Counted from the first letter of the stretch, positions 33,393-48,472 are shown. The stretch: 64,000 bases of DNA from an uncultured Spartobacteria bacterium (GCA_903868795.1 CAIPWR010000108.1:5589-69588); one strand, 5' to 3'. Numbers and translations are program-made. Notes: generated by a model from the sequence alone, not told the origin.

Positions 33393-34502
33393 TCAGGCGG
33401 CAAAGCCGAGAATCTTGCTTTCGGAGGAGTTTGTTCCCTCCTGCTCATTGAAAATCTCCGCAAGGGAGTAATCCTCCGGCCCTCCAGGTAGAGAGAGTCC
33501 ATGGTGGGCTGCGAGGCGGCGGGCGTCGGTGCGGGAGAGGCGTCCGAAGTGACGGCGTGCCATGAGGCGTCCGGGTCGAAGCAGGGCGTCGTCGAGATCG
33601 GAAGCGCGACAATTCACCGTCGCGATGATCTGCAGGCGGAGGAAGTCGGCCAACATTCCGTCCGAGTAGTTTAGGACAACCTGCACAAGCGAGCGGTTAT
33701 CATTGGCACGGGCCATGAGTGCCTGCTCGGCATCCTCGATGATCAGCGCGAGTTTTTTGTCCTGATGGAGTTCCCTCTGACGGGCCCAGAATGAGATGAA
33801 GTCACTATCGACCAAGCAGCCGATCTCATGAGGAGCGATATAATAGAAGCAATGAGTCTTCGCGTGCTGGGACACCAGATGCCTTAGGAAGGTCGTCTTC
33901 CCGGTTCCAGGAGGTCCCTCCAGAATCGTCAAGCCAGACGGTTTGTCCTCAAAACGATGCATAAAATCCGCATGCCAGCCGTTGAAATCCTCGCCATAGA
34001 GGAGTGATAATTCCTGCGCATCGGGCACCTTGACACCCTCCAGTGGGACGGTCTCCGTCCCGATACATCCGCAGGAACGTTCAATCAGATAGTAGCATGG
34101 CTTGATAGGCTTAACCAAGGACCACGCCATTTTGTAAAGCCGCCGTGCGAGCTTAGCCGTCGACTTCCAGTCGCGACCATAGGCACGGATGGTCGAGCGA
34201 TAGCAGGTGGCGAACATGCCGCTTCGGGTTCGTAGGATAAGAGCTTGGGCGGTGAAAACTCCCTTGCAGTCCCACTCCGAATCGGTACGCAGGAGTTTCT
34301 TTTCAAGACGCTTGCCGAGGGCCTTGAGATCGTATTTGGGAGGAGTGACCTCGACGCGGTGCAGGGGGCCGCTGCCCAGCTCCTCCATGAGACAAAGCGG
34401 AAGTCCCCCACCCTCCTCCATATAAACGGGAACCATGGTGAGTGGAAAGGTTTGCTGCGGAGCGGGCATCAGTGGCTTCTGGTTGAAATCGAAGGTTTCC
34501 AT
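33393..34502 (-). CDS. BCS1-like classic-clade AAA+ ATPase (paralog 2)
   Basis: Walker A GPPGTGKTTF, Walker B LIIEDAEQAL, and ATVNCRASDLDDALLRPGRL. The C-terminus is KILGFAA. Confidence 0.85.
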   Translation of the reverse strand: METFDFNQKPLMPAPQQTFPLTMVPVYMEEGGGLPLCLMEELGSGPLHRVEVTPPKYDLKALGKRLEKKLLRTDSEWDCKGVFTAQALILRTRSGMFATCYRSTIRAYGRDWKSTAKLARRLYKMAWSLVKPIKPCYYLIERSCGCIGTETVPLEGVKVPDAQELSLLYGEDFNGWHADFMHRFEDKPSGLTILEGPPGTGKTTFLRHLVSQHAKTHCFYYIAPHEIGCLVDSDFISFWARQRELHQDKKLALIIEDAEQALMARANDNRSLVQVVLNYSDGMLADFLRLQIIATVNCRASDLDDALLRPGRLMARRHFGRLSRTDARRLAAHHGLSLPGGPEDYSLAEIFNEQEGTNSSESKILGFAA

Positions 34503-34554
34503 GAGTTGTGTGTAAGAGTTGGTTTGATATGCCGGACAGGGTCAGCGTGCAGGC

Positions 34555-35052
34555 TTATCGATGGACGGTGCCGCTATAGGAGCGTCCGCCAGCTGTGGTC
34601 CCCGAAACCGAGTAATTCCCACCGCCGGTGTAGGTGACATTCCCTGATCCGCCCCGATAGGTGCTGTAGCTGGCGCTGCCATTACCATTGTAGGTTCCAC
34701 TGCCGTAGCGGCCGTAGTAGGTCCCGTTCCCGCCACAGTAACCATACGGGCGATAGTAGTTCCCATAGCAACCTCCATAACCGGTATATCCACGATAGCA
34801 CCCGCCCCACCAACCGAAGAATCCGTAGGGTGCATAGCCTCCGTAATATCCGTAGGGATTGTAATAGGTCGCGTAAGGATTTCCGTAATATCCGGGATAA
34901 TAGGTAGTATAAGTAGGCGCAACCCATGGAGTGGTCACCGTGGTTCCATTTGGGTAAGTTATTGTGGCACAGGAGCAAAGTGCTGATGAAATCAGTGTAA
35001 AAAGAATAATGTTATATAAATTAAATGATTTCATTTCTACTATATTAGACAT
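34555..35052 (-). CDS. secreted/lipoprotein-like Gly/Tyr/Cys-rich protein (GY-1)
   Basis: N-terminal signal FTLISSALCSC, followed by an extreme G/Y composition that includes GNYYRPYGYCGG. Confidence 0.65.
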   Translation of the reverse strand: MSNIVEMKSFNLYNIILFTLISSALCSCATITYPNGTTVTTPWVAPTYTTYYPGYYGNPYATYYNPYGYYGGYAPYGFFGWWGGCYRGYTGYGGCYGNYYRPYGYCGGNGTYYGRYGSGTYNGNGSASYSTYRGGSGNVTYTGGGNYSVSGTTAGGRSYSGTVHR

Positions 35053-35138
35053 AGCGATTATTTCTGTTAATTACGAGCTGAAACGCGGAAAGCGTATGAG
35101 ATCGGGATGACATTTCCTGTCGGTTCCAGATGAGGGGA

Positions 35139-36218
35139 TCATGCGGCGAATCCGATGCGGCAGGGTGTAGGTTCCACATCACGGATGGGCTCCGCCGAAA
35201 AGATCTCCGCAAGGGAATAATCAGTGCGCAAAGGGAGCTCCTTCCCGAGCGAACGTGCGAGGCGGTGGCCATCCTGATGGGAAAGGCGACCGAAGGTGCG
35301 TTGGGCGGTCAGGCGACCGGGGCGGAGAAGTGCCTGATCAATATCGGTCGTGGCACAGTTCATGGTCGCGACGATGTGCAACTGGAGGAAATCCGCCAGA
35401 AGGCCATCGGTGACATTCAGGATCGCGGAGACTTCGGAACGATTGTCCATGGCGCGCGGGGCAAGGGCCGCCTCAGCATCCTCCAGAACCATGACGAGCT
35501 TTTTGCCTTCGGCCTCTTGCTTTTGGCCGTTCCAGAAGTCGATGAAATCTGGATTGGAGACGATCCCGACCGTCGAAGGTGGAACGAAGTAGAAGCGGTG
35601 CGAGGTGCGAAGCTCCACCATCAAATGGCGAAGATAGGAGGTCTTTCCGCAGCCTGGAGTCCCGTCAAGGATCGTCAGCCCGTGGGGGCGCTCGGAAAGG
35701 GCCTTGATAAAACCGGTATGCCAATCGAGGAATTCGGAGCCGTAATTGAGCGCCAGCTTCTCCTCGGCGAGACCGAACTCGGCCTTCATCGTGACTGCAA
35801 AGGTGTTGAGATCCCCGCGGCTCACGCGAAGAAGGTGATAGGTGCCGAACTCCGGCGCCTCCTCCTCGTTTGCCACAAGGTAACGTTGCAGGAGACGACC
35901 CAGCAGATGGCATGCACGAAGAGTTGGTCCGTAGACCTTGAGACACCCTTCGTCAAAATGAATGAAGAGCCCGCGATCCGAGCCGAAGATCACATGGAAC
36001 CAATGCTTCTCCTCTCCCATCCCCCCGCTGTCCGAGCGGAGGATGCGTTTGGAGAGATTTTTGGCCATCGAATTGATGTTCCAGCGTGAATCGCGGCAAC
36101 GTAGGCGGAGTCGGTGAAAGTCACGTGTTCCGTAATGTGAGAGAACCGGTTGAGGTGGGTTTTCCCCCGATTCTTCGAAGGCGTAAGAGGTCGAGACGAT
36201 CTGGTTGATGGTATTCAT
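35139..36218 (-). CDS. BCS1-like classic-clade AAA+ ATPase (paralog 1)
   Basis: GTPGCGKTSY, MVLEDAEAAL and ATMNCATTDIDQALLRPGRL. The C-terminus is CRIGFAA. Confidence 0.85.
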   Translation of the reverse strand: MNTINQIVSTSYAFEESGENPPQPVLSHYGTRDFHRLRLRCRDSRWNINSMAKNLSKRILRSDSGGMGEEKHWFHVIFGSDRGLFIHFDEGCLKVYGPTLRACHLLGRLLQRYLVANEEEAPEFGTYHLLRVSRGDLNTFAVTMKAEFGLAEEKLALNYGSEFLDWHTGFIKALSERPHGLTILDGTPGCGKTSYLRHLMVELRTSHRFYFVPPSTVGIVSNPDFIDFWNGQKQEAEGKKLVMVLEDAEAALAPRAMDNRSEVSAILNVTDGLLADFLQLHIVATMNCATTDIDQALLRPGRLTAQRTFGRLSHQDGHRLARSLGKELPLRTDYSLAEIFSAEPIRDVEPTPCRIGFAA

Positions 36219-36274
36219 GGAATGAGTCGAAGGGTCTGGATTGTCAAAAAACTGGTGGATTCCGGTGCGGGGGA

Positions 36275-36673
36275 TCAGTTGATTCCTGCAGCGCGGAGAG
36301 CATTGATGGTTAGGTCACGGGCACCCTCTTCTTCAGGTACAAACTGCTCCACCACCATGCGGATCACCTGCGCCGGGGTGAGGGGACGGAAAACCCGCAG
36401 ACTGCGGCGATGCTCGCGCAGTGCGGACTCCGATTCCTCGTTGGTCGCCGTGGTCCAGATGCTTCCATCCCAAATCTGGATGATGGTTCGCGCAATGTAG
36501 AATCCATGCTCATCCGAGTGGTGCAGCATGCTGTCCACATCGAGGAAGTTTCCCTCCTCATCCTTGTCTAGGAAGAGTGTGGTGATGTAAGTGTCGTTGG
36601 AGGGGTCGTACGTGGGCTTGGATAAGAGCATATGGGTGATTGGCGTGGGGAGTGAATATGAGTTGATTGACAC
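36275..36673 (-). CDS. hypothetical protein (first gene of the minus-strand arm)
   Basis: 132-aa ORF with a GTG start at 36673. No motif recognised. Confidence 0.45.
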   Translation of the reverse strand: MSINSYSLPTPITHMLLSKPTYDPSNDTYITTLFLDKDEEGNFLDVDSMLHHSDEHGFYIARTIIQIWDGSIWTTATNEESESALREHRRSLRVFRPLTPAQVIRMVVEQFVPEEEGARDLTINALRAAGIN

Positions 36674-36694
36674 ATAAACCCTCCTTAATCACCC

Positions 36695-36709
36695 CGACAC
36701 GGAGTGTCG
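36695..36709. promoter_or_regulatory. palindrome CGACAC-gga-GTGTCG (motif site a)
   Basis: Perfect 6-3-6 inverted repeat in the divergent intergenic region. Confidence 0.4.
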
Positions 36710-36736
36710 TTGAAACATCTGCCGTAAATAACAGAC

Positions 36737-36751
36737 CGACACTCCCTGTCG
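36737..36751. promoter_or_regulatory. palindrome CGACA-ctccc-TGTCG (motif site b)
   Basis: 5-5-5 inverted repeat with the same CGACAC..GTCG core. Confidence 0.4.
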
Positions 36752-36962
36752 TTCGCAGGCTTCTTAAGTATCGGCTATGACATCGAACTGTATTACATCT
36801 GATACTGTCGTGATTTTCTCAATTCCAACGTACTCAAAAAGCCGGAAGCCAGGTAGCGGAGGAAAACGTAGGGAGTCATTTTTTCAAACCCTCTTGACCG
36901 GATCCCATTTTATGCAATCTTCCAAAACGATGAATGAACTGTTGACACGCCGAAGGCGAAGA

Positions 36963-36980
36963 CCCGACACAACCGTCGGG
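36963..36980. promoter_or_regulatory. palindrome CCCGAC-acaacc-GTCGGG (motif site c)
   Basis: Ends 14 nt upstream of the ATG at 36995. The 21-mer cccgacacaaccgtcgggacc is identical to the one at 45507. Confidence 0.45.
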
Positions 36981-36994
36981 ACCCTGCGCTTTAG

Positions 36995-37429
36995 ATGTCC
37001 TCTAATTCATTCCCATGTTTACACAGCGATCTAGTTGATCTTGACGAAGCGGCTTCTGGCCGTGTCGCCCACCTTTCGTTGCCGAATTGTCGGTACGAGA
37101 TTCCTCCCTCCCGCAAGAAACGGAACAAGGAGTGGCACCGCTTGCTTAGCTTACGGCGTGCCATGCGCCTTCAAGACCACCTTAGCAAAAAATCGTACTC
37201 CTTTAGCAAACAATGCAACGAGCGCGGGGCATTGGAGTCCGAGATCGACCATATCGAAAAGTTTCTTGAGGCCCACTTCGCCTGGGATCTGCTCGGTGGA
37301 CGTTTCTTTGCCTGCAAGGAACGTGATCTTTCCTTTGAAAAAGTAGCGATCCTGAAGCGTCTGCATTTGCAGGAAATGCGTGAAACAACCCTTGAGCTTT
37401 TTTCTTCGGGCTACCGGAATTTTTGCTGA
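36995..37429 (+). CDS. hypothetical protein (first gene of the plus-strand arm)
   Basis: 144-aa ATG ORF lying 33 nt upstream of AAA+ paralog 3. Confidence 0.45.
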   Translation: MSSNSFPCLHSDLVDLDEAASGRVAHLSLPNCRYEIPPSRKKRNKEWHRLLSLRRAMRLQDHLSKKSYSFSKQCNERGALESEIDHIEKFLEAHFAWDLLGGRFFACKERDLSFEKVAILKRLHLQEMRETTLELFSSGYRNFC

Positions 37430-37462
37430 GCTCCTGTCTTTGGAAAACCTCAATCTCAACCC

Positions 37463-38644
37463 ATGAAAACGCAGAAACCTTCAAACCCTCTTCATCCACT
37501 CACCACGCTCGATCTTAACGCTAACAAGAAAAGTGTTTCTAGAAGCCGTAGCAAGGTCATGATGAACATCGACCTTGCGGATATCGACTCTTGGGGGGCA
37601 GATGCCTGCACTCCTCCTCTTCCTGTCCTTGCCTTTTATGGTGCTGATCCACTTCATCGGTTTGCTTTGCCGCGTGGACGTTTTGATATTGCCCGCCTGA
37701 CGAAACAATTTGCCTCACGAATCGTACGCTCTGACAGTCGTCCCGGAGGAAAATCCGATTCTGAGGATCAGGATGGTTGGAGGAGCGTCCTCTTCCATTT
37801 CAAGGGATTTGGCGCATGGCTGCACTATGAGCACGGCACGATCAGCACCTATGCGGCGACCCGTCGAAAGGCGATGCTCTTGGCTCTGAAGATGGAACGT
37901 TACCATCTCAAGGATAAAGAGACTGGCGGAAGCTTTGAATTGATCTCCCTGGAGAATGGATCGATCGATACCGAGACAGTCACCCTAGGGATGGAAACAA
38001 TCCTTGAAGATCGGATTCTCTCCCTGCATTACGGCGAGGACTTTCCTAAATGGAGTCGCGATTACGAAAGCATAATCACTTCGAAAAAGAGCGGTTTGAG
38101 TATCCTGGATGGGCCTCCCGGCACGGGTAAGAGTTCTTTCATCCGCCACCTGATGGGGAAGTTAAAGAGCTCGCACAGATTCTTTTTTGTTCCCCCGAGC
38201 GTGATCGATGTCGTGAGCAACTCCTCTTTCGTCAGCTTCTGGAGTCGTCAACAGATGAGTCACAAGGGACGCCAGTTCGTTCTTGTGCTGGAGGACTCCG
38301 AAGCTGCATTGATGAAGAGGGCTGCGGACAACCACTCGCTTGTGAGCAGTCTGCTCTCGGTCACCGATGGCCTTCTGGGGGACTTCATGAAGATCCAGGT
38401 AATCTGCACGATCAATTGCAAATACCAGGACATCGATCCTGCTCTTCGTCGTGCGGGACGCTTGGTTGCTCACCGCCACTTCCCTCGACTGAGCTACAGC
38501 AAGGCCTGCTCTCTCGCTGATAAGATCGGTCGTCCCGTTCCGAGCAGGGAGGAATTCTTCGATGGGGACTTCTCCCTCGCCGAGATCTACAACGCCGACG
38601 CCGCTCCCCAGCAGGAGTCGAAAATCATCGGCTTCGCCGCATAA
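37463..38644 (+). CDS. BCS1-like classic-clade AAA+ ATPase (paralog 3)
   Basis: GPPGTGKSSF, LVLEDSEAAL and CTINCKYQDIDPALRRAGRL. The C-terminus is KIIGFAA. Confidence 0.85.
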   Translation: MKTQKPSNPLHPLTTLDLNANKKSVSRSRSKVMMNIDLADIDSWGADACTPPLPVLAFYGADPLHRFALPRGRFDIARLTKQFASRIVRSDSRPGGKSDSEDQDGWRSVLFHFKGFGAWLHYEHGTISTYAATRRKAMLLALKMERYHLKDKETGGSFELISLENGSIDTETVTLGMETILEDRILSLHYGEDFPKWSRDYESIITSKKSGLSILDGPPGTGKSSFIRHLMGKLKSSHRFFFVPPSVIDVVSNSSFVSFWSRQQMSHKGRQFVLVLEDSEAALMKRAADNHSLVSSLLSVTDGLLGDFMKIQVICTINCKYQDIDPALRRAGRLVAHRHFPRLSYSKACSLADKIGRPVPSREEFFDGDFSLAEIYNADAAPQQESKIIGFAA

Positions 38645-38698
38645 TTAACCCGGCGATCAGCGACTCCTCCTGACGCATCTTCCCTATAGAAAAAGGGC

Positions 38699-39154
38699 AT
38701 GAAAAGAATTCTAATCCTGATCACGATCGTCCTCATTACTGCCACTGCTTCTCCCTCTCTTCATGCCAATCCTGGTTGGAATGGCGGATGGAACGGGGGA
38801 GGGGGCTATTCTCATAGCGGAGGCGGTGGACAATATCACCATGGAGGTGGAGTTCAGCATTATCAGGGCGGCGCCAGGTGCTACCCCGGGTGGAATGGAG
38901 GATACTACCGCCCCACTGCCTGCAGTTACGGTGGTGGCTATGGCCATGGTGGAGGGTACGGCGGAGGTTGTGGTTCTGCAGGAGGATGGTATGGCACCGG
39001 AATTCCGAATGGCCTGGGGTGGGTGCTTTGCGGACTCGGACTCGGAGGTCTCTTGGGAGTGGCTACCGCGCCGATGATCGTTGCTCCCCAGCCCGTCTAT
39101 GCTGCTCCTGCGCCCGGCATCTATTCGGCTGCCTACGGCACGCCGGTTTACTAA
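38699..39154 (+). CDS. secreted Gly/Tyr/Cys-rich protein with glycine-zipper hydrophobic tail (GY-2)
   Basis: Signal peptide ending SLHA|NP, a GGYYRPTACSYGG core, and a GLGWVLCGLGLGGLLGVA segment. Confidence 0.65.
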   Translation: MKRILILITIVLITATASPSLHANPGWNGGWNGGGGYSHSGGGGQYHHGGGVQHYQGGARCYPGWNGGYYRPTACSYGGGYGHGGGYGGGCGSAGGWYGTGIPNGLGWVLCGLGLGGLLGVATAPMIVAPQPVYAAPAPGIYSAAYGTPVY

Positions 39155-39181
39155 GACGTCAAGAAGTCGCGCGGTTTTCGT

Positions 39182-40078
39182 ATGAGTTCATTACCTCCAC
39201 CCATGCAGACAGAGTTGTCATTCCGTGGCGAAGAAGATGATTTCCTTCGCGAGTGGCTTCGTGAACGTCGCAAGACGCGTCTGCAGCGTCTAGGTGAATG
39301 GCTGGAGATGTCGGTCCTTCTTCCAGTTATTCAGGGTCTGCTAGCAGTAATCAGGGTAGCCGAGCCACTCCGAGTTGTCCCGGCACCCGTATGGACGATT
39401 GGCTCCATGCTGATCTCGATCGCAGTCTACTCTTCCAGGATGGGGTGGAAACTGGCACTTGGCTTCATCACCCTCTTGATGATCCACGAGAGCGGGCATC
39501 TGCTTGCGGCACGCTATTACGGGGCGCGCATGAGCGTTCCGATCTTCATCCCCTACATCGGGGCGATTATTGACATGAAGGAGCCGATGCGGAATGCCTG
39601 GGAGGAGGCCGTCTTCGGCATCTCGGGGCCGCTTTTGGGGACCCTTGGAGCCTGCCTCTGCTGGATCACGGCAGGCATCACCGGCAGCTTCTACTTCGCC
39701 GAGCTGGCACTCTTTGGTTTTTTCCTCAATCTCTTCAACCTCATTCCACTTGGCTTTCTTGACGGAGGACACGTCGCAGTCGTGCTCACTCGTTGGCTCT
39801 GGATTCCCGGCTACCTCATGATGGGCGCCTTCGCATGGTATGTGCATTCGCCTGTCGTGATTATCTCGCTTGTCGTCATGCTTCCAATGGTCCTCTCCCT
39901 CTTCCGGAAGAAACCACATAAAGACAATCTCTATGACCGCGTGCGGCTCGGGAAGCGTTTCGCCATGGGTGCCATCTACCTGGCCCTTGTCTCTTTCCTC
40001 GCCTGCTCCATGTCCTGGATTTTCATCAAGGACATCTACCCCGGCCTCAAGCAAGGCAAGAGCCTTATCAAGCTTTAA
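39182..40078 (+). CDS. M50 (site-2-protease-type) membrane metalloprotease (copy 1)
   Basis: HESGHLL (HExxH) and NLFNLIPLGFLDGGH (the NxxPxxxLDG motif). Polytopic. Confidence 0.75.
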   Translation: MSSLPPPMQTELSFRGEEDDFLREWLRERRKTRLQRLGEWLEMSVLLPVIQGLLAVIRVAEPLRVVPAPVWTIGSMLISIAVYSSRMGWKLALGFITLLMIHESGHLLAARYYGARMSVPIFIPYIGAIIDMKEPMRNAWEEAVFGISGPLLGTLGACLCWITAGITGSFYFAELALFGFFLNLFNLIPLGFLDGGHVAVVLTRWLWIPGYLMMGAFAWYVHSPVVIISLVVMLPMVLSLFRKKPHKDNLYDRVRLGKRFAMGAIYLALVSFLACSMSWIFIKDIYPGLKQGKSLIKL

Positions 40079-40104
40079 TCCGACGTGTGCGCCGATCTCA
40101 ATAA

Positions 40105-40458
40105 CTAAGAGTGTATGATCAAGCTGGTTCGATTAATCTCCACGTGCGAAGCGATCTCGAATGCCGACTCGATCGCTTGAAGATTTCGTCGAAGTAAATT
40201 CCTTAGTTCGGAATTTGGAATATTTCCCGTTGAGATTTGGAGAAGTCTCCGGGGGGTGCCTTTCAGAAGCAGGGAAACGACAAAGTCGGAATCCTTGCTC
40301 ACAACGATCAAGCCCTCCGAATCTGCCATTGCTGATATTAAAGTGTCGGGAGTCCTATTGCCCATCTCGAGATCCAAGGTATGGATCACCTCATGCCCCG
40401 CGTTACTGAATACGCTGCGAAGCGTACCGGGCAGTTGGGCATCTAACAGGAACCTCAC
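40105..40458 (-). CDS. DUF5615-like (PIN-like) toxin
   Basis: MRFLLDAQLP...VVSKDSDF pattern. Overlaps the DUF433 gene by 4 nt. Confidence 0.65.
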   Translation of the reverse strand: MRFLLDAQLPGTLRSVFSNAGHEVIHTLDLEMGNRTPDTLISAMADSEGLIVVSKDSDFVVSLLLKGTPRRLLQISTGNIPNSELRNLLRRNLQAIESAFEIASHVEINRTSLIIHS

Positions 40459-40697
40459 GCCGCGATCGGTTCAAGCCGCTTCACACGGCTCATCCTTGCA
40501 GCGTACGCAAATACAGCCTTGAGATCATCGGCTTCAAGATCCGGGTAATCGACAAGGAACTGTTCCACCGAGGTCGGGCCGCTAAGCATTTCCAGCACAA
40601 ACTCCACTGGGTATCGCATCCCCCTTAGGCAAGGCTTGCCATGACAGATGTCAGGATCCGTTGTGATTCGGGCCATTAATTCTGCTTCAGACATCAT
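40455..40697 (-). CDS. DUF433 antitoxin-like protein
   Basis: The ITTDPDICHGKPCLRGMRYPV motif is typical of DUF433. Confidence 0.7.
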   Translation of the reverse strand: MMSEAELMARITTDPDICHGKPCLRGMRYPVEFVLEMLSGPTSVEQFLVDYPDLEADDLKAVFAYAARMSRVKRLEPIAA

Positions 40698-40716
40698 GTT
40701 ATCTTATTCTCTATGA

Positions 40717-40923
40717 CTGGCATTTGCAAGTTCACCGGCATCGTGGAATGGCACCGGTATCCCGAATGGTCTCGGGTGGACCCTCTTTGGCCTCCAGGCA
40801 GTCGCTGCCATTGCCTGCCCACCGGTAGTTGTCGCCCCCCAGCCCGTCTACACAGCTCCCGTCTACATCCCCCCGCAGCCTGTGTATTACCAGCCAGTCT
40901 ACGCCAGCCCCGTCGTTTACTGA
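40717..40923 (+). pseudogene. 3' fragment of a GY-family gene (no start codon)
   Basis: The open frame begins right after a TGA at 40714. It encodes ..SWNGTGIPNGLGWTLFGLQAVAAIACPPVVVAPQPVYTAPVY..VVY*, which matches the C-terminus of GY-2 (WYGTGIPNGLGWVLCGLGLG..VAPQPVYAAP). Confidence 0.6.
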
Positions 40924-40935
40924 GCATTTACCTCC

Positions 40936-41661
40936 TTGTACAAGCGAGCGCCTGAAGGACGAAACCCTGACACACCAATCCGGATGACTCCGTTAATGCA
41001 ACTCTCTGCCATCGAGCGATGGGTCGATCCTCGGCGTATCTTCCACACGGTTGATCTCCTGCCGGAACCTCCAGCGTTGCTGGACATGCGACACCTCCTT
41101 ACGCCCAAGCAGGCCGCGGCTTGCGTGCCCGGCATTTGCCTCACGGTAACACCTCCTGCGGCCACCAAATTCAATGCCCAACTCTGTTTTTGGATCACAC
41201 GTGATGGGAAGAAGTCGGCTGTCTGCTCGTTCGCCGAGGGTGATCAGGAAATCTGTGCCGAATGGTTTCCGGATTTTGAGAGCACCAGCGAGATGACGGA
41301 CTTCATCGAGGAGAGGACGACCCGTTTTCTGCTGGAGCATCTCTTCGGACCGGCTTTGGACGAATGGGCCGCCTCAAAAGGGATACGCTGCGAGGAGTGT
41401 GCCAAGCCGTCGTCAGTTTTTGAGTTGGGGGCCAAGGCTTGCCACTACAGCTCAAGCAGCGGGTTTGATGACTGGCTCTTCATCGAGGTTGAGGACGGGG
41501 AAGGCTATGGCGTCACCCTTGGCATCTCGGGACGCGGAGAGTCAGCCACATTCACCTGTGACGAGGAGGGTTTTCTAGAGTTTGATCTTCGTGCCAACGG
41601 ACTCAAGACCGGCACGGAACTCATCGTCTGGATTGAGGGGGCAATCAGTAAGCACGCCTGA
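40936..41661 (+). CDS. hypothetical protein
   Basis: 241-aa ORF with a TTG start (an alternative ATG lies near 40984). No motif recognised. Confidence 0.45.
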   Translation: MYKRAPEGRNPDTPIRMTPLMQLSAIERWVDPRRIFHTVDLLPEPPALLDMRHLLTPKQAAACVPGICLTVTPPAATKFNAQLCFWITRDGKKSAVCSFAEGDQEICAEWFPDFESTSEMTDFIEERTTRFLLEHLFGPALDEWAASKGIRCEECAKPSSVFELGAKACHYSSSSGFDDWLFIEVEDGEGYGVTLGISGRGESATFTCDEEGFLEFDLRANGLKTGTELIVWIEGAISKHA

Positions 41662-41774
41662 TCTTTTTCCTCACATTTCTGATTTTCCACACGTCTGCTT
41701 CACCTGTCCGAAAGGCTACAGCCTGTATCGCTCAAGCCTTTCGCTTAATTTTATCACCAATTTTTCTCACCCAG

Positions 41775-41789
41775 CGACACCTCTCGTCG
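41775..41789. promoter_or_regulatory. palindrome CGAC-acctctc-GTCG (motif site e)
   Basis: The same CGACAC..GTCG core, about 145 nt upstream of the YbjN-like gene at 41936. Confidence 0.3.
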
Positions 41790-41935
41790 CCGCCCTATGT
41801 CAGGATTGCTTCAACTTCAGAATCGATGAACCCAATCCCCGCATCACCATTCCCCGATACGGGAAGATCCCCCCTTTTATACCTTCCACCTTCTAACCTT
41901 CACCCATTCCCTAACTCCTAGCCCCTATATCACCC

Positions 41936-42682
41936 ATGTCCGACTCCAATACCCCGTTTGAACCCGCAACCGGCCCCGACTTCGGAGGGCCCTTCAAGAC
42001 CGTGTGCGATCACTTCGAGGAACACATGAAATCCGTGAACATCGATTGGGAGAAAAAAACCCTCCGTTTCCAAGTTTATGGCGACCACGCGAACATGGAT
42101 GTCCGGATTCGTGTCTGCGAGGAGGATCATGTCCTCCAGTTCTTCATCACGCTACCCTTCCGGGTGGCGAACGAGAAGATGCGACCCATCGTGGCCGATT
42201 TTGTGGCCAGGGCAAATTGGGGTCTCGTCGTCGGATCGCTGGAATTTGACATGAGGGACGGGGAACTCGTCTACCACATGACGCAGTTGCTTGAGAACCA
42301 CACGATCGGTGATCAACTCATAGGACGTCTGTTTCGCACAGGCATGTCGACGTTCGACAGGTACATCCCCGGCATCTTTCAGATCATTTACGGAGGGAAT
42401 ACCCCGGAAGACGCCGTCTACCTTTGCGAATTGGACATGCATTCCTCCCAAGATGCCGACACCCAGTCCTCATCCGTCGCGCCGAAGAAGAAAAAGCCGG
42501 CACCGCGTCGAAAGAAATCCACCAGCAAGGACGCCGGTAAGGAAAGCGGACAGGAGAGTCATTCCTCTGATTCCGGAAACCATGCAGCTCTCGAATCCCC
42601 AGCACCTCAGGATCCCATGGGTAACAATCAGGCAGAGGATCGTGGTACATTTTCTGCAGAGGCCGAGGAGGATGAATTTTAG
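41936..42682 (+). CDS. YbjN-like protein with Lys-rich/acidic tail (copy 2)
   Basis: FVARANWGLVVGSLEFDMRDGELVYH and YGGNTPEDAVYLCELD. Paralog of 31588..32403. Confidence 0.65.
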   Translation: MSDSNTPFEPATGPDFGGPFKTVCDHFEEHMKSVNIDWEKKTLRFQVYGDHANMDVRIRVCEEDHVLQFFITLPFRVANEKMRPIVADFVARANWGLVVGSLEFDMRDGELVYHMTQLLENHTIGDQLIGRLFRTGMSTFDRYIPGIFQIIYGGNTPEDAVYLCELDMHSSQDADTQSSSVAPKKKKPAPRRKKSTSKDAGKESGQESHSSDSGNHAALESPAPQDPMGNNQAEDRGTFSAEAEEDEF

Positions 42683-43136
42683 ATTTTCCAAAGTGGGGAA
42701 TCTAGCTTTCAGCTCCCCTCATTACTGAAAAGTGCTACAAGCATGACATTCCTCCGATGACGACCGAATCCGTTCTTGAAGAGGATTTGAAGTTTTCCCA
42801 AGCGTATGGTTCGTCTATGCCAACGGATGTAAGGATCGCCCGGGCTTCGATGATAGGCTGGAATTCCGCATCAGCCTTCTGTCCCACCAAGGGAGCGGCG
42901 ACTGGGTGGAGGAGACCCTCACGGAGGCCAAGCAGGTGCTCGATGCCGATTCCTCGCCTGTATCGGATCCAGAGTGCAAGTACTGCGGGTATGTGGAGAA
43001 AGCCTCCCAACTGATGCGTTTAGCCGTTTTTGGATGCTGATTGTTCAATAAAGTGCTACAAAAATGATGATCACTCACAATCAAAAAATAAACACAACTT
43101 CGGTTAAAAAATCCGTTTTCAACTAGAGTCCATATT

Positions 43137-43523
43137 ATGAGGGAAGAATTGCGAATTGAGTTAAGTGAGTTATGTGAAGGCAATCCAGGTGTACGTAAAC
43201 TCATGCTCCATTTTTCCACATCTGAAGATGTGGCTTTTACTTCCATAAGTGATTTGGCAGCTATCGTGGGAAAGGATCCCACTGATTCAGCTGTCCGCGA
43301 AGTTGCCGATGAGCTCCTGCGGTATTTTTCCGATCAGCTAGATCTTGGTAATCCCCGCACACGGGCAAACCTTTTTGAGACTTTCCGTGCTGTCAGGAAT
43401 TCCAGAAGGACTTTTGAAGAAGAGGTCGCCGTTCGCCGAGTAAGATTCTTAAAATATCCGCTGGGTGCTCTGGTGCGGGCGACGGGCCTCCATCATCGGT
43501 TCTGGTCTTTGATTTACCCGTAG
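43137..43523 (+). CDS. hypothetical protein
   Basis: 128-aa ATG ORF following an AT-rich spacer. Confidence 0.4.
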   Translation: MREELRIELSELCEGNPGVRKLMLHFSTSEDVAFTSISDLAAIVGKDPTDSAVREVADELLRYFSDQLDLGNPRTRANLFETFRAVRNSRRTFEEEVAVRRVRFLKYPLGALVRATGLHHRFWSLIYP

Positions 43524-43583
43524 AGGATTCCCCGCTGGATGATGGAGTCTGCCCATCGCTTCAGAACGCGAAGCGCGGCAGTA

Positions 43584-44327
43584 TTACGGAGACGATTTCG
43601 ATGCAGTTGCATTTGCATGAAGGTTTTTCCTGAGGAAGAGGTGTTGAGATCCTGGCATCGGGGCGTAATTTTCCAAGGTCATCCCGTGTGTTCCGAGTGT
43701 GGACAGAAGCCTCTCCTTGGGCCAGCAGCGGATCTGGAACTGATCACGGTAACGGATTCGGGCACCGTTCCGAAGGTCATACGAGTCCTCGGTGTAGCGG
43801 TAGAGTCCGTTGCCGAGTGGCTCGACAACCATGTTGCGCTCCATGCGGCCGGTTTTCTTGGACATGGAGCCAAAAGCCCCTTCGCTTGGGGCATCCAGAA
43901 TCAGAAGTCCTCCGGGTTTCAGCGATCGGGCCATGACGGAGCAGGCAAGTTCCAGCTCATGCTCCTCGGTCGTATAGGCGATGACCGTGAAAAGACAGAG
44001 GGCGAGATCCTGATCTCCCTCGGGAATGAAGCCCTGGATCTTTTGGGTGAAATGATTGATCGGCACCTCTGCATCCCCGGCTTTTCGGAGAAGGACCTGC
44101 ATCATGGATGTGGAGGGTTCGACCGCTGTGACTTGATGGCCCTCGAGTGCAAGAGGTATGGCGACACGTCCCGTCCCGGCACCGAAGTCGATGATTTTTT
44201 TCCTGCCATCAGCGTTCCTGGTGATGTGGGAGAGGGTTTCCCGTGTGAAGCTCCCGTACATCGCACCGAAAGTTTCCTCGTAGAAGAAATCGTAGACCTC
44301 GGCCCAAGGTTCATGAGGTAATGGCAT
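43584..44327 (-). CDS. class I SAM-dependent methyltransferase
   Basis: IIDFGAGTGRVAIPLALEGHQVTAVEPS motif. Confidence 0.75.
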   Translation of the reverse strand: MPLPHEPWAEVYDFFYEETFGAMYGSFTRETLSHITRNADGRKKIIDFGAGTGRVAIPLALEGHQVTAVEPSTSMMQVLLRKAGDAEVPINHFTQKIQGFIPEGDQDLALCLFTVIAYTTEEHELELACSVMARSLKPGGLLILDAPSEGAFGSMSKKTGRMERNMVVEPLGNGLYRYTEDSYDLRNGARIRYRDQFQIRCWPKERLLSTLGTHGMTLENYAPMPGSQHLFLRKNLHANATASKSSP

Positions 44328-44473
44328 GTGAAAAGTACTTCACAAGCCTTTCATGCAAGTCAAAGCATATTTCAGTTGTACTGTTCGCGGAATTGACACC
44401 AATGTTGGATTGCCATGTGTCGAGTCAGTTGAGAGAAGAGGATATCTTTTTGATTTTCTAAAAATTCCATCAA

Positions 44474-45394
44474 ATGACTGTTGAACAACTAGCTTCCATG
44501 TTTCCCCTGATCCCCGACGATTTCCGCGAGGATTTGTCCGGTGGACCTTTCAGGGTGGCCTGGTATGCCTCCGCGGGGAACGATCTCCGCCCTGTCGAAT
44601 TACTGAGCCACACAACGGCCCGTCCACAACCGAGTGAAGGAATCAGGGTATTCCTCTACACCGGCATCAATCCGGACTTGAGGAGGCAACTCTGCCGCCA
44701 ATCATGGCCGGGCCATGTGAGCAGGAATCACTGGATATACATGACCCCGAATGGAACTCCGCGATACGAGAGGCCATACGGGGACGCATTTCTTGCCTTT
44801 CACGCCGATCTGATCGTTTTCACCCCCGAGGTTGATCCCCCCGTGCTTTTCAAGACAAGGCGAGGATGTGATTTTAAGCGAGGGATATTTGGTCCTCTCT
44901 TGGAGATATATCACGATTTCTTCGGGGATCAGGAAGCAACCTACAATGTGGAAATGGACTTCGTTTATTCGATTCAATCGATAAACGGAGTTAATAGCAT
45001 TGGTGATTTCGTTGGCTGTGAAACTGGGCTTGTTATTAAAAATAAACAAAATGGCGATACGCTTGATGTAGCTGGACTGCATTCAAGTCCCCGGGAAATG
45101 GAATACTGCAAAATTCTTTATTCTTTCATCTTTCGTGAATGCAAGAGGGAGCCGAGCCTCCTTCTTCAATCGGAAAGCATGCCTTATCCCTCGGGATACC
45201 ATACTCCCCGGAACATCTACATATTCTTCACCAAGATCTCGGATGAACACTTCAGGGATCAACTCCTTGAAAGAGGCATACGAATCACCGCAGGCTGCTT
45301 TGACTCGAATCACGTGCTCGATCAGTTTCGTGGTCTCCGGATGGACTATCCAAAGGATCTCAGGGATCCCGACCGTGTCATTGATGTGCATTGA
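44474..45394 (+). CDS. hypothetical protein
   Basis: 306-aa ORF. The N-terminal WYASAGNDLRP loosely resembles FYPGCERDASA in 46596..47603. Confidence 0.5.
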   Translation: MTVEQLASMFPLIPDDFREDLSGGPFRVAWYASAGNDLRPVELLSHTTARPQPSEGIRVFLYTGINPDLRRQLCRQSWPGHVSRNHWIYMTPNGTPRYERPYGDAFLAFHADLIVFTPEVDPPVLFKTRRGCDFKRGIFGPLLEIYHDFFGDQEATYNVEMDFVYSIQSINGVNSIGDFVGCETGLVIKNKQNGDTLDVAGLHSSPREMEYCKILYSFIFRECKREPSLLLQSESMPYPSGYHTPRNIYIFFTKISDEHFRDQLLERGIRITAGCFDSNHVLDQFRGLRMDYPKDLRDPDRVIDVH

Positions 45395-45506
45395 TCAAAT
45401 CTAGCAACGAATGCTGTCTTACACCGAAAGATTCCTTGCAATAGCCGGAGGTTCTACGCAACTTGCTCACATGATTCACTTGTACAACACGCGTTTTAGA
45501 TGCGCG

Positions 45507-45524
45507 CCCGACACAACCGTCGGG
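45507..45524. promoter_or_regulatory. palindrome CCCGAC-acaacc-GTCGGG (motif site d)
   Basis: The same 21-mer as at 36963. It ends 16 nt upstream of the GTG start at 45541. Confidence 0.45.
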
Positions 45525-45540
45525 ACCGCCATCTTAACAC

Positions 45541-46254
45541 GTGAACAACACAATCAATGACACAGTAACCCCCGTTTCTAACACGCTCCGCAGTCTGGCG
45601 GGGCGGATCGCGCGGGTCCTCCCGTATTTCAAATCCCTACGCAGCACGGAGTGCAGGGCGAGGCTGCTCTTCAACCCTCTCGAGAATTCCACGAGGTTCT
45701 ACCTCTCGGTGCGTGATGCCATGGAAAGGCTCGCGAAGGCTTCTCAGCCCTCGCTTTTGGAGATCGAGATCATCGATTCCTGCGGCGTCGAACCGGAGCT
45801 CATCCTTGCCTTTCACGATCTCCTCTCGAACCGCCCTTCCCGCGTGCGTCTGCGCGTGGTGACCAGGTTCAACCTGATTGACGGATTGATTCTTTTGCCG
45901 ATCTTGGCAGACGAGGTGCACATCGGTGCTCACTGCTGGTGGGAGTGTGTTGATCCCTTAAAAATCGAAGAGGAAAAAGACTGCATTGATGGAGATGAGT
46001 GGAAGAAACCGGTGCGCCGCGGCGCAGGGTCTACCGACGAGCCGGCTCCTCTGGCAGACCATCGCACGCTTCGTGCACTCCTCGGACAGTATCTGCCCTA
46101 TGCGGAATATTCCGGCCGGCGCGTACCGCTAGCAGCAACGTTGAGGGATTTCGGTCTCATTCCAGGAGATCAAGCCGATTTTCTCACCCGCTGCCTCACT
46201 ATGCCGATGCCCACGACACCTGCTGTCTCTGCACCGTGCAACACTCTGAGGTAA
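45541..46254 (+). CDS. hypothetical protein, possibly a degenerate ClpP/crotonase-fold protein
   Basis: By eye, EIEIIDSCGVEPELILAFHDLL...RVVTRFNLIDGLILLPILAD...HIGAHCWW aligns with the ClpP INSPGG...GxAASMG...MIHQP region, but has no Ser/His at the catalytic positions. Confidence 0.35.
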   Translation: MNNTINDTVTPVSNTLRSLAGRIARVLPYFKSLRSTECRARLLFNPLENSTRFYLSVRDAMERLAKASQPSLLEIEIIDSCGVEPELILAFHDLLSNRPSRVRLRVVTRFNLIDGLILLPILADEVHIGAHCWWECVDPLKIEEEKDCIDGDEWKKPVRRGAGSTDEPAPLADHRTLRALLGQYLPYAEYSGRRVPLAATLRDFGLIPGDQADFLTRCLTMPMPTTPAVSAPCNTLR

Positions 46255-46258
46255 TGCC

Positions 46259-46555
46259 ATGAAGAAACTCATCCTTTGCTCGTTGTTCTCCGTCGGCATC
46301 GCCCATGCCCAGCCCTGCGGTTGGGGTGGCTATGCGCGCCCTTACTCTGGGTGGATCTCCACCACTGGAGCCTGTAACGGTGGCGGCTGTTATGCCCCCG
46401 TGCTCTACGGGAACCCCTATGCCTGCGGTTACTATGCGGCTCCCACCGTTCCGGTCACCATCGGCCCACCCACGGGCATCGGCATCTCGTTCTTCGGCCT
46501 GAACATCCTGTCCATCAACCCGACGCTTCCCCAGGCAACCTTGATTACCCGCTGA
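46259..46555 (+). CDS. secreted Gly/Tyr/Cys-rich protein (GY-3)
   Basis: Signal peptide ending IAHA|QP, then CGWGGYARPYSGW, NGGGCYAP and ACGYYAAP. Confidence 0.6.
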   Translation: MKKLILCSLFSVGIAHAQPCGWGGYARPYSGWISTTGACNGGGCYAPVLYGNPYACGYYAAPTVPVTIGPPTGIGISFFGLNILSINPTLPQATLITR

Positions 46556-46595
46556 ATCCACCATCTCCGCATCCAACCCAACCAAACTTATTCAT

Positions 46596-47603
46596 ATGAC
46601 AAAAGAACTCCCTCAGCAAACCGCGCCCGAATGGCTAGAGAACATGACCCAGGAGAACATCCGCGAAAGGTTTTGCCTCGAGGACATCCTCAAGGGCTCG
46701 CTGTTCTATCCCGGATGTGAACGCGATGCCTCGGCATTCGACATTTTCTCCGGGAACTATCACAGCTTTGTATTCGCGGATCCGACAGTCCGCGAAAGCG
46801 ACCTCACTCTCTGGCTCAACGGAGCCGAAATTCCCCACATCCTTCCACAGCACTACAGGCCCGTCGCTTCGACCCGTCTGAGGGATAGCGACCTTTCTAC
46901 CGTGTTCTGCTGGGATGACAAGGACCGTGAAATCTCCCGCTACGGCAGGGTGGGGAGCGAGTTTGTCCAGCGCTGGCGTCATCTTGCAGGTTCGCCGATC
47001 TTTGCTCGGGACGTCTTTTCAACCGGTGAATCCATCACGAAGATTCTCGATGTAGAGATCGAGCCGTACCTGCGCTTGATGGAGAAATCACGTGATGAGT
47101 TTGCGTCATCAATCACGTTCATCAATCGGCGGTTCCGCTATCTGCAGGAGAAAGCGCGTGCCCTTCAGGCCCAATTCGATCCGTTTTGGAATCCCGAGCC
47201 CCCATATGCCCATTGGTTTGTCATGGAGAAGTGTGATACGGCAGCGGAGGAACTTCCCGCCCGGGTCTCACTGCTCTTCCTCGGCGAGGAAGCCTCACTG
47301 GCCTACCGCGCTCTTTACACGGATCGCGGCATTTCCCCCGCGATGATTCTGATCAAGAACTGGAAGAATGGTCATGGAGACAACCGTCCCTGGAGCCGTG
47401 GGGATGTGGACTCTTCTCCCTTCTACAAGGCTGTGACCGAGTGCAGAGAAGCCCCGATGCCGGACATCGCGTTCAAGATTTACCAAGAGGAACCGGACTG
47501 GGAGGGATGGGAGGAGTTTGCGAAGATCCCTCTGGACGACAACTACCGGGGCGAAGCCCCCCTGAGGCTTCTTCGCCATGCCGGAGGAACTCTGGCAAAA
47601 TGA
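46596..47603 (+). CDS. hypothetical protein
   Basis: 335-aa ORF. Its stop overlaps the next start (ATGA at 47600). Confidence 0.5.
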   Translation: MTKELPQQTAPEWLENMTQENIRERFCLEDILKGSLFYPGCERDASAFDIFSGNYHSFVFADPTVRESDLTLWLNGAEIPHILPQHYRPVASTRLRDSDLSTVFCWDDKDREISRYGRVGSEFVQRWRHLAGSPIFARDVFSTGESITKILDVEIEPYLRLMEKSRDEFASSITFINRRFRYLQEKARALQAQFDPFWNPEPPYAHWFVMEKCDTAAEELPARVSLLFLGEEASLAYRALYTDRGISPAMILIKNWKNGHGDNRPWSRGDVDSSPFYKAVTECREAPMPDIAFKIYQEEPDWEGWEEFAKIPLDDNYRGEAPLRLLRHAGGTLAK

Positions 47604-48472
47604 ATAATCGTTTCGCCATCGCGGGTGACGAGCCCGTGTCCTTTGCCCCGCCTGCGCCTCCTGAGATTTGCTGTGAGAGGGATTGGAGCGGTGCGCCGCC
47701 GATCCGTCTCCAACCCTCCGCGCACTACTCATCCGCGCAGACGGATCGAATCATCAACTACTGGCGACCGCGGATTGCGAATCTTGTGGAGAGCGCCATC
47801 GGAATGGTCGGTGATTTTCGTCAATATCAAGAAGGTGGAAAACTCGGTATCGACTGGCAGACCAATGGGAATCCTTATCCCTGTCTGCCGTTTCTGCGTG
47901 TGGTTGGCCCCCCCGAATCGGGAAGAGACATGAGGCACTTCACCGACGAGTCCTGCCACGTCCTGCTTCAGACCTCTACGAAAGAGGAGGCTCAAGAAGC
48001 CTATTGGTTTAAGGGAAGGATTCCCGACGCTCGTGATATCATGGAATGGATAGAACGATGGTCCGTCTGGCTTCCAAACGAGAGCAGTCAGTTTGAATTC
48101 TGGAGCGTTTTCTTGCCAAGCGGGACGTTCGAAAGGTTCTGCCATTATGTGCATTCTCTCGTCCACGACTACTATCTGGAAATCCTTGAGCGCCACACGC
48201 TTTGGGAAGAAAGGATGGAGTGCGAGGGCTGGCCTCCCCCGGCAGAGGATTCACTGCCGACCGCCAAGAATCTCCCCACGTCTATCCGCTACTGGCACCC
48301 AAGACTCCTCCTTGACGAGGAGGAATTCCGCCTCACGGTGGAGAATGCAGCCGAAGTCTTCGCCTTTACTATGGACATGCTGCAACGCTACAGGCATTCG
48401 CTCGACCAGGAGGCCAAAGATGCGCTGGAAATGGCCGCTTACGAGGCGTATCTGCTTGGAAATCCCAGATGA
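47600..48472 (+). CDS. hypothetical protein
   Basis: Start placed at MNNRFAIAG (47600). Its stop overlaps the M50 copy 2 start (ATGA at 48469). Confidence 0.5.
   Translation: MNNRFAIAGDEPVSFAPPAPPEICCERDWSGAPPIRLQPSAHYSSAQTDRIINYWRPRIANLVESAIGMVGDFRQYQEGGKLGIDWQTNGNPYPCLPFLRVVGPPESGRDMRHFTDESCHVLLQTSTKEEAQEAYWFKGRIPDARDIMEWIERWSVWLPNESSQFEFWSVFLPSGTFERFCHYVHSLVHDYYLEILERHTLWEERMECEGWPPPAEDSLPTAKNLPTSIRYWHPRLLLDEEEFRLTVENAAEVFAFTMDMLQRYRHSLDQEAKDALEMAAYEAYLLGNPR

Follow-up and report, generated by a model that had tools for sequence, protein, structure and literature searches.

A stretch of 64,000 nt from an uncultured Spartobacteria bacterium (GCA_903868795.1, CAIPWR010000108.1:5589-69588), called the window in the following, contains three open reading frames (ORFs), GY-1, GY-2, and GY-3, which encode short proteins rich in glycine and tyrosine and lie close to genes for AAA+ ATPases. 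The locus raises the question whether these ORFs are genes at all, whether they belong to one family, and which role their products might have. An earlier interpretation made from the sequence alone (the sequence-only reading) had proposed the three ORFs and a 3' fragment of a further copy, and GY-1, GY-2, and GY-3 were all recovered as described, with lengths of 165, 151, and 98 aa, respectively (Table 1). The window matches a lake metagenome contig in the European Nucleotide Archive (ERZ18623821, scaffold_225).

The coding status of the three ORFs was analyzed with codon alignments against diverged homologues, which were scored in all six frames. In the proposed frame, the ratio of nonsynonymous to synonymous substitution rates (dN/dS) was 0.24 for GY-2 versus its homologue at locus L008 (72% nucleotide identity) and 0.28 for GY-1 versus L016 (63%). 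For GY-3 versus L014 (64%), the proportions of nonsynonymous and synonymous differences were 0.21 and 0.78, the latter being saturated. The GY frames were open across all homologues at nucleotide identities of 57-72%, and in every homologue pair the GY frame was the sole frame free of stop codons in both partners. ORFs of 78-128 aa overlap the GY genes in other frames (e.g. 38763..39077 on the plus strand, 38711..38947 and 46199..46585 on the minus strand), but they are interrupted by stops in the homologues or show ratios above 1. Frame -1 yielded a low ratio yet contained 7-17 stops; the low ratio arises because its third positions fall on those of the true frame. Because purifying selection acts in the proposed frames alone, the alignments identify GY-1, GY-2, and GY-3 as real genes. 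The sequence-only reading had named the case that would overturn it, namely that ORFs of the opposite strand or of alternative frames are the true products, and this case was not borne out (dN/dS of about 0.24-0.28 in the only stop-free frames).

Public gene calls have taken an alternative frame over the GY-2 orthologue at L002 (4936..5232) and over the fragment at L001 (8015..8257, equivalent to 40713..40955 of the window), showing that GY genes can be mis-annotated. These calls and the overlapping ORFs are what could be said for chance ORFs, or shadows of genes in other frames, within G-rich low-complexity DNA, an explanation that has next to no chance of being right and is contradicted by the present data, i.e. 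by the open GY frames and their dN/dS ratios, the stops and pseudo-dN/dS values above 1 of the alternative frames, the retention of the protein-level motifs even in a phage of 38% GC, and the lack of DNA tandem repeats within the GY genes. Because of this lack of repeats, slippage of the DNA was also rejected as the source of the low complexity. Rfam gave no match anywhere in the window.

An extreme G/Y content had been claimed for all three proteins. Six-frame translation of the window yields 268 ORFs with a length of 60 aa or more, and among these GY-1, GY-2, and GY-3 occupied ranks 1, 2, and 4, with G+Y fractions of 0.40, 0.38, and 0.22 (background mean 0.088, standard deviation 0.046). The claim is thus correct with respect to rank, but mature GY-3, with 26% G/Y, is moderate only.

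The proposal of one family with a shared GY(Y/A)RP core had to be abandoned. Database searches recovered separate sets of homologues for the three proteins, and the hhalign probabilities were 32% for GY-2 versus GY-1 and 2% for GY-3 versus GY-1, so that GY-1 has no detectable homology to the other two. The comparison of GY-2 and GY-3 was less uniform. The profiles matched with a probability of 96.8% (E = 2.6e-10), but the shuffling control showed that the signal peptide supplies most of this score: The full score was 42.9, and values up to 33.8 were still reached when the mature columns alone were shuffled. For the mature parts, the score was 23.8 versus a maximum of 20.9 in 60 column shuffles. 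Both families have an A↓xP junction at the signal peptide (the arrow marks the junction) and a G(I/L)G(W/I)(T/S)(L)FGL motif in common, and it is suggestive, though no more than that, that they may be distant relatives. According to these comparisons, the GY proteins constitute three lineage-restricted families and not one, and GY-1 represents a lipoprotein family unrelated to GY-2 and GY-3. The supposed core turned out to be a minority motif in two of them: Of the 19 short members of the GY-2 family, in which YYRGG is the common form, 4 contain [YWAC]RP, as do 2 of 8 members of the GY-3 family, compared with 5 of 7 in the GY-1 family. What the three families do have in common is composition. 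The mature proteins are rich in Gly, Tyr, Trp, Asn, and Cys; Asp, Glu, and Lys are absent from nearly every member, and one to seven Arg residues provide the only charge.

The GY-2 family has a uniform order of elements in alignment A1 (16 sequences, four of them from members with a peptidoglycan (PG)-binding domain). A signal peptide ending in A↓NP or A↓YP is followed by one to four GWNGGGYYRGG-like units, an invariant GW.GTGIPNGLGW..G block, a hydrophobic stretch rich in Gly and Ala, and a C-terminal tail of Pro, Val, Tyr, and Ala (VAPQPVY...). It had been proposed that GY-2 and the fragment end in a zipper-like hydrophobic segment followed by VAPQPVY repeats, and this was found to be true for both, with G112xxxG116xxxG120 before VAPQPVY in GY-2 and four to five PxPVY-like units in the fragment. 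Of the three window proteins, only GY-2 contains the GxxxGxxxG pattern, and family-wide the conserved pattern is small-xxx-small only. At least seven database relatives of GY-2 carry a PG_binding_1 domain at the C-terminus, after the PxPV tail; further carriers were found at loci L010, L012/13/29/30/34, L022/37, and L032. A different extension is encoded at L011 (7848..9545), where a 565-aa protein opens with a GY-2-family module (signal peptide, G/Y region, GTGIPNGLGWTLFGL) and continues with a long region rich in Ser, Gly, Ala, and Asn that includes three repeats of about 60 aa. This architecture suggests that the N-terminal module of the GY-2 family could serve as a portable anchor for varied C-terminal passengers. 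The signal peptides of the GY-2 orthologues are not conserved, and for this reason an Eep-like pheromone derived from the signal peptide was rejected.

The fragment at 40717..40923 belongs to the GY-2 family, and the alignments indicate that it is a pseudogene. P0010, a complete family member of 122 aa, ends in exactly the sequence to which the fragment translates (...WNGTGIPNGLGWTLFGLQAVAAIACPPVVVAPQPVYTAPVYIPPQPVYYQPVYASPVVY*). In the alignment with L002, a gap of 291 bp occurs in the window at this site, with flanks that are 100% identical on both sides. Through this deletion, a gene of the P0010 type has lost its promoter, start codon, signal peptide, and G/Y units together with the intergenic region. 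What remains cannot have an N-terminus of its own because an in-frame stop precedes it and no ATG, GTG, or TTG is contained in it. A toxin-antitoxin-type gene pair lies between M50a and the fragment and is 100% identical to that of L002; as it is located upstream in both the window and L002, it is not the cause of the truncation.

In the GY-3 family (alignment A3, 8 sequences), the signal peptide ends in A↓[Q/Y/N]P, and the two motifs given for GY-3 in Table 1 characterize the family as a whole. For GY-1, the homologues (alignment A4, 7 sequences) favour the second ATG, at 35034 (MKSF...), as the start. The lipobox cysteine is invariant in 7 of 7 members (LCS↓C in GY-1, LPG↓C in P0021) and is followed by a conserved TT(V/I)TYPNGT. 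The family further shows a near-invariant TT(V/I)TYPNGTTVTTPYVAP block, YGGGYFPVYGYGYGGCWNRP, and then a sequence rich in W, N, G, C, and R.

Next, export and topology were considered. The N-termini of GY-2 and GY-3 are of the Sec type, with a K/R-containing n-region, a hydrophobic core of 12 residues, and A-x-A followed by [N/Y/Q]-P, a pattern kept in the homologues; the A↓[N/Y/Q]P junction is conserved throughout A1 and A3. In a heuristic test for Sec export and cleavage by signal peptidase (SPase) I, both were positive (GY-2, MKR + ILILITIVLITA + SLHA↓NP; GY-3, MKK + LILCSLFSVGIA + HA↓QP), and GY-1 carries the lipobox L-x-[G/A/S]-C of bacterial lipoproteins (SPase II / Lol) with its invariant Cys. 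According to these sequence features, the GY proteins are exported. The proposal that all four copies carry a signal or lipobox sequence therefore applies to GY-1, GY-2, and GY-3, but not to the fragment, which has neither a start codon nor a signal sequence. AlphaFold2 (AF2) models had a mean pLDDT of 52 for GY-2 (built on A1), with helices only at residues 2-16, the signal peptide, and 106-122, the hydrophobic segment, and of 38 for GY-3 (built on A3), without any secondary structure. The mature proteins are of low complexity and, by prediction, probably disordered.

The hydrophobic segment of the GY-2 family has Hessa sums of +1 to +8 kcal/mol and mean Kyte-Doolittle values of 1.0-1.9. The island subclade, to which GY-2 belongs, has the most transmembrane (TM)-like segment of the family, and that of GY-2 itself is TM-like (+1.4 kcal/mol, 1.75). 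The GY-3 motif (+5 to +7 kcal/mol, 1.2-1.6) is not TM-like, and the hydrophobicity scan of GY-1 revealed no TM-like segment. In the GY-2 family, the segment is followed by 30-60 uncharged residues or by a whole domain; a K/R cluster after the helix was found in no member, and the flank in L011 is acidic. No match to C-terminal sorting signals (PEP-CTERM, IPTL-CTERM, GlyGly-CTERM, etc.) was obtained with NCBIfam at E <= 0.1 for GY-2, P0006, P0010, and P0014. The PG_binding_1 carriers, the acidic flank and repeat domain of L011, and the absence of a K/R cluster favour a periplasmic C-terminus, and the helix would then be membrane-associated or oligomeric rather than a classical stop-transfer sequence.

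The distribution of the families was analyzed with the GIPNGLGW pattern and with profiles. All six confirmed genome hits of the pattern were in metagenome-assembled genomes of Spartobacteria/Chthoniobacterales, two of which contain two paralogues each; 16 further hits were in metagenome contigs without habitat or taxon label. A search of 1.84 billion representatives with the A1 profile was dominated by PG_binding_1 repeat proteins, because A1 included four PG-binding members, and added about seven true small members. Going by the taxon-labelled homologues, the families are restricted to freshwater Verrucomicrobia (Chthoniobacterales) and some phages. One PG-binding member (L029) lies between glpFKD and lutABC on a 112-kb contig, i.e. 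in a core metabolic neighbourhood. Other short GY-2-family genes follow a gene for a penicillin-binding protein (PBP)-transpeptidase (L004) or for DndB (L005-7); DndB-GY was rejected as a conserved pair, since it is represented by one element only. In IMG/VR contigs of 38% GC, a GY-2-family gene with an intact GGWYGTGIPNGLGWTLFGL is located among small early-type genes on a T4-like contig, 3 kb from rIIA (phrog_612, E = 6e-120). The homologues of GY-3 are found in a different, mutually syntenic region of 41-44% GC with small genes, GP88, and HNH/NUMOD4. Scans of IMG/VR for the GY-1 family, the GY-3 family, AAA3, and M50a revealed no relatives.

No GY protein reached a curated cut-off in Pfam, NCBIfam, PADLOC, or PHROGs. 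By profile score, the closest named entity to GY-2 is the PXPV repeat (PF12778; 16.4 bits, E = 0.0086), below the gathering cut-off of 23.1 bits; the relative P0005 is the sole precomputed hit of this family. PXPV-repeat proteins are uncharacterised small exported bacterial proteins and, like GY-2, have a signal peptide and short PxPV-type repeats (VAPQPVY, APVY, QPVY), but three elements of GY-2 are absent from them, namely the G/Y/R region, the GIPNGLGW motif, and the hydrophobic helix. The glycine-zipper families (Gly-zipper_Omp, _OmpA, _YMGG, Rick_17kDa_Anti) did not match GY-1, GY-2, or GY-3 in Pfam at E <= 0.01 or in NCBIfam at E <= 0.1. Glycine-zipper lipoproteins of the SlyB/Pcp and OsmB type are small exported proteins with a GxxxG-spaced Gly-rich hydrophobic segment on the periplasmic side of the membrane. 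GY-2 resembles them in size, export, and this segment, but it is not a lipoprotein and has an additional G/Y/R head and PxPV tail. Tethers of the OmpA/Pal type consist of a membrane anchor, an Ala/Pro-rich hinge, and a peptidoglycan-binding domain. The relatives of GY-2 likewise combine a membrane-associated module, a Pro/Ala/Val-rich linker, and a PG-binding domain; they differ in that a single hydrophobic helix replaces the beta-barrel or lipid and PG_binding_1 replaces OmpA_C, and in the window copies the PG domain is absent. A literature search on the PXPV repeat, on glycine-zipper or tyrosine-rich bacterial proteins, and on YbjN/AAA/M50 defence revealed nothing relevant. The GY families are undescribed, but they are of a broadly familiar kind, namely small exported low-complexity envelope proteins.

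With some reservation, we favour the view that the GY-2 family consists of membrane-associated envelope anchors or tethers, that the window copies are accessory short forms carried by an island or by phages, most plausibly modifying the envelope in conflict, and that GY-1 is a lipoprotein of the AAA1 module. After export, the hydrophobic helix of GY-2 would associate with a membrane from the periplasm and anchor the protein there, either monotopically or as an oligomer. The stiff Pro-rich PxPV tail would extend to the murein, to which the core members add a murein-binding domain, and the Gly/aromatic/Arg head might self-associate or bind envelope polymers. The window copies, shortened and presumably co-transcribed with genes for cytoplasmic AAA+ ATPases and the M50 intramembrane protease on a variable island, would probably act in conflicts between phage and host or between cells by remodelling or occluding the envelope, which would be an exclusion-type rather than a housekeeping function. 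GY-1 would be a lipoprotein that has reached this composition by convergence and is obligately tied to the operon of the AAA1 module. T4 Sp, Imm, and RI as well as Cor and Llp are small phage-encoded exported envelope proteins that act in superinfection exclusion or lysis control. The GY proteins are similar to these in that they are small, have a signal peptide or lipobox, look non-essential, and are borne by phages or islands, and the setting of the phage copy near rIIA is like that of phage exclusion proteins; they differ in that they lack similarity to any PHROG and that host core genomes hold family members.

Several points weigh against this view. Both AF2 models are of low confidence. 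The PG_binding_1 argument is borrowed from relatives of only about 45% identity, and the window copies themselves have no such domain. With its TM-like segment, the window GY-2 could instead be anchored as a type I protein, its tail then lying in the cytoplasm. The evidence for an exclusion or conflict role is location, on the island and in a phage, and PADLOC assigned the proteins to no known defence family. Furthermore, a simple tether leaves the coupling of GY-1 and of the GY-2 subclade to AAA+ and M50 genes mechanistically unexplained.

This coupling is the basis of a second explanation, which we regard as unlikely, i.e. that GY-2, and perhaps GY-1 and GY-3, are substrates or regulators of an AAA+/M50 proteolytic module. 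GY-2 would be of type I, its Gly/Pro/Asn-rich, helix-destabilised TM segment would be cut by M50, and its cytoplasmic PxPV tail would be handled by the AAA+ unfoldase, by analogy to regulated intramembrane proteolysis or the BofA-like inhibition of SpoIVFB. The linkage of the GY genes to AAA+ genes, asserted by the sequence-only reading, was seen for GY-1, which adjoins an AAA1-type gene in 5 of 5 independent contexts (window, L004, L016/17, P0021 contig, L038), and for the GY-2 island subclade, in which the order AAA3-GY-2-M50a is kept in four island versions (window, L002, L008, L026) while the identity of GY-2 falls to 63-73%. The GY-2 family at large is tied to neither AAA+ nor M50 genes. 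In the window, GY-2 is separated from AAA3 by 54 nt and from M50a by 27 nt, the catalytic motifs of M50 are intact, the island subclade has the TM-like segment described above, the (I/L/V)GFAA tail of all AAA paralogues could dock on a partner, and a common 21-nt element precedes both operons with GY and M50 genes. However, AAA3-type and M50 genes are adjacent without a GY gene in L016/L017 and the P0021 contig, and for most genes of the GY-2 family, neither an AAA nor an M50 gene lies within 6-8 kb. The helices cleaved by site-2 proteases are of type II (N-in), and a protein with a cleaved signal peptide would have the opposite orientation. The PG_binding_1 fusions of relatives also point to a periplasmic C-terminus.

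Quite unlikely is an interpretation that follows the analogies drawn by the sequence-only reading. The proteins would form a cohesive material outside the cell or in the periplasm (a gel, a condensate, or a cross-linked matrix), held together by Gly/Tyr/Arg stickers, disulfides, or dityrosine, in analogy to resilin, the GYR-motif proteins of insect cuticle, and glycine-rich plant wall proteins. In favour, most members of the GY-2 family have an N-region that is 55-83% G+Y+W, in which Arg is the sole charge and Cys residues are scattered; the number of GWNGGGYYRGG-like units varies between homologues; disorder is predicted; and GYR-type motifs have been linked to insect cuticle assembly (PMC2932725). 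The Pfam GYR motif (PF02756), however, did not match any GY protein, no enzyme for cross-linking, such as a peroxidase or laccase, was identified in the scanned island genes, the Cys counts are not consistently even across family members, and conservation in A1 peaks in the GIPNGLGW and hydrophobic motifs and not in the G/Y region. Eukaryotic G/Y-rich secreted proteins (cuticle GYR proteins, resilin, plant glycine-rich wall proteins, antimicrobial peptides of nematodes and plants) also combine a signal peptide with Gly/Tyr(/Arg) low complexity. The likeness is one of composition and GYR-like triplets alone and does not speak for a common function, and the bacterial proteins differ by the extra conserved hydrophobic motif and the PxPV tail.

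A wider hypothesis, which is a long way from probable, supposes that Chthoniobacterales have an undescribed conflict module of AAA+, M50, and YbjN proteins, encoded in paralogous co-regulated operons on a defence-type island, and that the GY proteins are its exported arm in the envelope, with the phage copies serving superinfection exclusion or mimicry. The AAA+ ATPases with their (I/L/V)GFAA tails and M50 would control sticky proteins, free of acidic residues and lysine, that seal or remodel the envelope against phage.

There is only a slight chance that the GY proteins are Sec-exported cationic Gly-rich membrane-active toxins (bacteriocin-, lysis-, or holin-like), with a membrane protein encoded next to them, e.g. 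M50, that protects the producer or processes the toxin. Small size, positive charge, a Gly-zipper hydrophobic segment, multiple paralogues, pseudogenisation, and the island or phage location would fit, and the composition resembles that of eukaryotic G/Y-rich antimicrobial peptides. The double-glycine leader of class II microcins is absent, the N-termini being of the Sec or lipoprotein type, and library scans of the island proteins revealed no C39/ABC or other bacteriocin exporter, no recognised immunity family, and no oxidase. A toxin role is improbable for the core-genome relatives with a fused PG-binding domain, purifying selection is moderate and not diversifying, and GY-1 and GY-3 have no TM-like segment.

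If the envelope role applies, the GY proteins would be undescribed bacterial envelope proteins made almost wholly of Gly, aromatic residues, and Arg, without acidic residues or lysine, and thus a prokaryotic extracytoplasmic counterpart to the eukaryotic "sticker-spacer" low-complexity proteins. Members occur in the core genomes of hosts, on variable islands, and in phages. The proteins could reveal how Verrucomicrobia build or defend their envelope, and their association in operons with genes for AAA+ ATPases and a protease of the site-2 type might represent a new regulated-proteolysis or exclusion module.

Table 1. GY genes and neighbouring features of the window
Feature	Position	Strand	Description
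GY-1	34555..35034 (ORF to 35052)	-	159-aa lipoprotein (165 aa from the ORF start); lipobox LCSC; conserved TITYPNGTTVTTP.VAP; G/Y/W/C/R-rich region
GY-2	38699..39154	+	151 aa; signal peptide 1-23; predicted disordered G/Y/W/H-rich region; invariant GWYGTGIPNGLGW; Gly-zipper helix ~106-122; PxPV(Y) tail
GY-3	46259..46555	+	98 aa; signal peptide; G/Y/C-rich region with invariant NGGGCYAP..YGN.YA.GY; C-terminal G.G..FG.NIL.IN motif
Truncated GY-2-family gene (P0010 type)	40717..40923	+	5'-truncated pseudogene; WNGTGIPNGLGW, hydrophobic segment, and PxPVY repeats retained; no start codon
AAA1	33393..34502	-	classical-clade AAA+ ATPase directly downstream of GY-1; ends ILGFAA
AAA2	35139..36218	-	paralogous AAA+ ATPase upstream of GY-1; ends RIGFAA
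AAA3	37463..38644	+	paralogous AAA+ ATPase upstream of GY-2; ends IIGFAA
M50a	39182..40078	+	site-2-protease-type intramembrane metalloprotease (HESGH, NLIPLGFLDG), downstream of GY-2
M50b	48469..49335	+	M50 protease, paralogue of M50a with 49% identity; three genes downstream of GY-3
DUF433/DUF5615 pair	40105..40697	-	toxin-antitoxin-type pair (PIN-like, PIN_10-like) directly upstream of the truncated GY gene
h132	36275..36673	-	conserved protein heading the GY-1 operon
h284 (32526..33380) and YbjN1 (31588..32403)	31588..33380	-	conserved downstream members of the GY-1/AAA1 operon
Palindromic element, copy 1	36963..36983	+	exact 21 nt, CCCGACACAACCGTCGGGACC; lies 12 nt ahead of the gene that opens the AAA3-GY-2-M50a operon
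Palindromic element, copy 2	45507..45527	+	identical 21 nt; lies 14 nt ahead of the gene that opens the GY-3...M50b operon

The GY genes are parts of three operons, h132-AAA2-GY-1-AAA1-h284-YbjN1-h130-HAD on the minus strand and h144-AAA3-GY-2-M50a and h237-GY-3-h335-h343-M50b on the plus strand. The intergenic gaps beside the GY genes are 4-86 nt, and GY-3 starts 4 nt past the stop codon of the upstream gene. One weak terminator-like match (34924-34943, plus strand) and one weak promoter-like match (35070-35042, minus strand) were found in or beside the GY genes; such matches were no commoner than in shuffled sequence. The 21-nt palindromic element had no match in 100 shuffles and is probably a shared operator or 5' hairpin. 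The observation also covers L026 3651..3668, and an TTTAGATG motif is located close to both window copies.

The C-terminal pentapeptide (I/L/V)GFAA is present on every island AAA+ paralogue and orthologue (window, L002, L016, L026, L038), and the paralogues are only 38-41% identical. It may be a docking or degron tail and recalls the IGF loop of ClpX and the ..LAA end of the ssrA tag. A related ATPase of the jumbo phage PA5oct ends with KIGFGN.

The island extends from about 29 to 50 kb (29371..50154) and is a mosaic of paralogous modules, with three AAA, two M50, and two YbjN genes in addition to HAD, WYL, h132, h241, and h284. Its gene content varies in each related contig (L002, L004, L016, L026). 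In other islands, h132 is located divergently upstream of a variable gene that is followed by a GY-2-family gene, and this slot is occupied by AAA3, the PBP-transpeptidase, or DndB. Pfam, NCBIfam, PADLOC, and PHROGs yielded nothing for h132, h144, h241, h284, h130, h237, h306, h335, h343, and h213. PADLOC-DB 2.0 gave no match for the GY proteins, M50, YbjN, and h284, and only weak P-loop matches for the AAA genes (E >= 2e-5). A megablast of the island against a plasmid collection was negative, and a prophage origin was unsupported, as the 21-29 kb region contains only a UmuD-like gene and one PHROG of unknown function and no tRNA gene.

Outside the island, the first 17 kb of the window (1..17448) contain genes for an AMP-ligase, three FAD-dependent halogenase-like proteins, an acyltransferase, an MMPL transporter, and a ketoacyl synthase, and look like a halogenated lipid or aryl-polyene-type biosynthetic locus. 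UmuD/UmuC (19836..22044) and a WYL regulator precede the island. Downstream of it, the region 50412..63860 contains defence-type genes. They encode a DUF2130 protein, a Z1-domain protein, a type III restriction enzyme, the name of which is taken from cluster members, and an N6/N4 DNA methylase, and they include a GP88-like gene (about 57952..58683).

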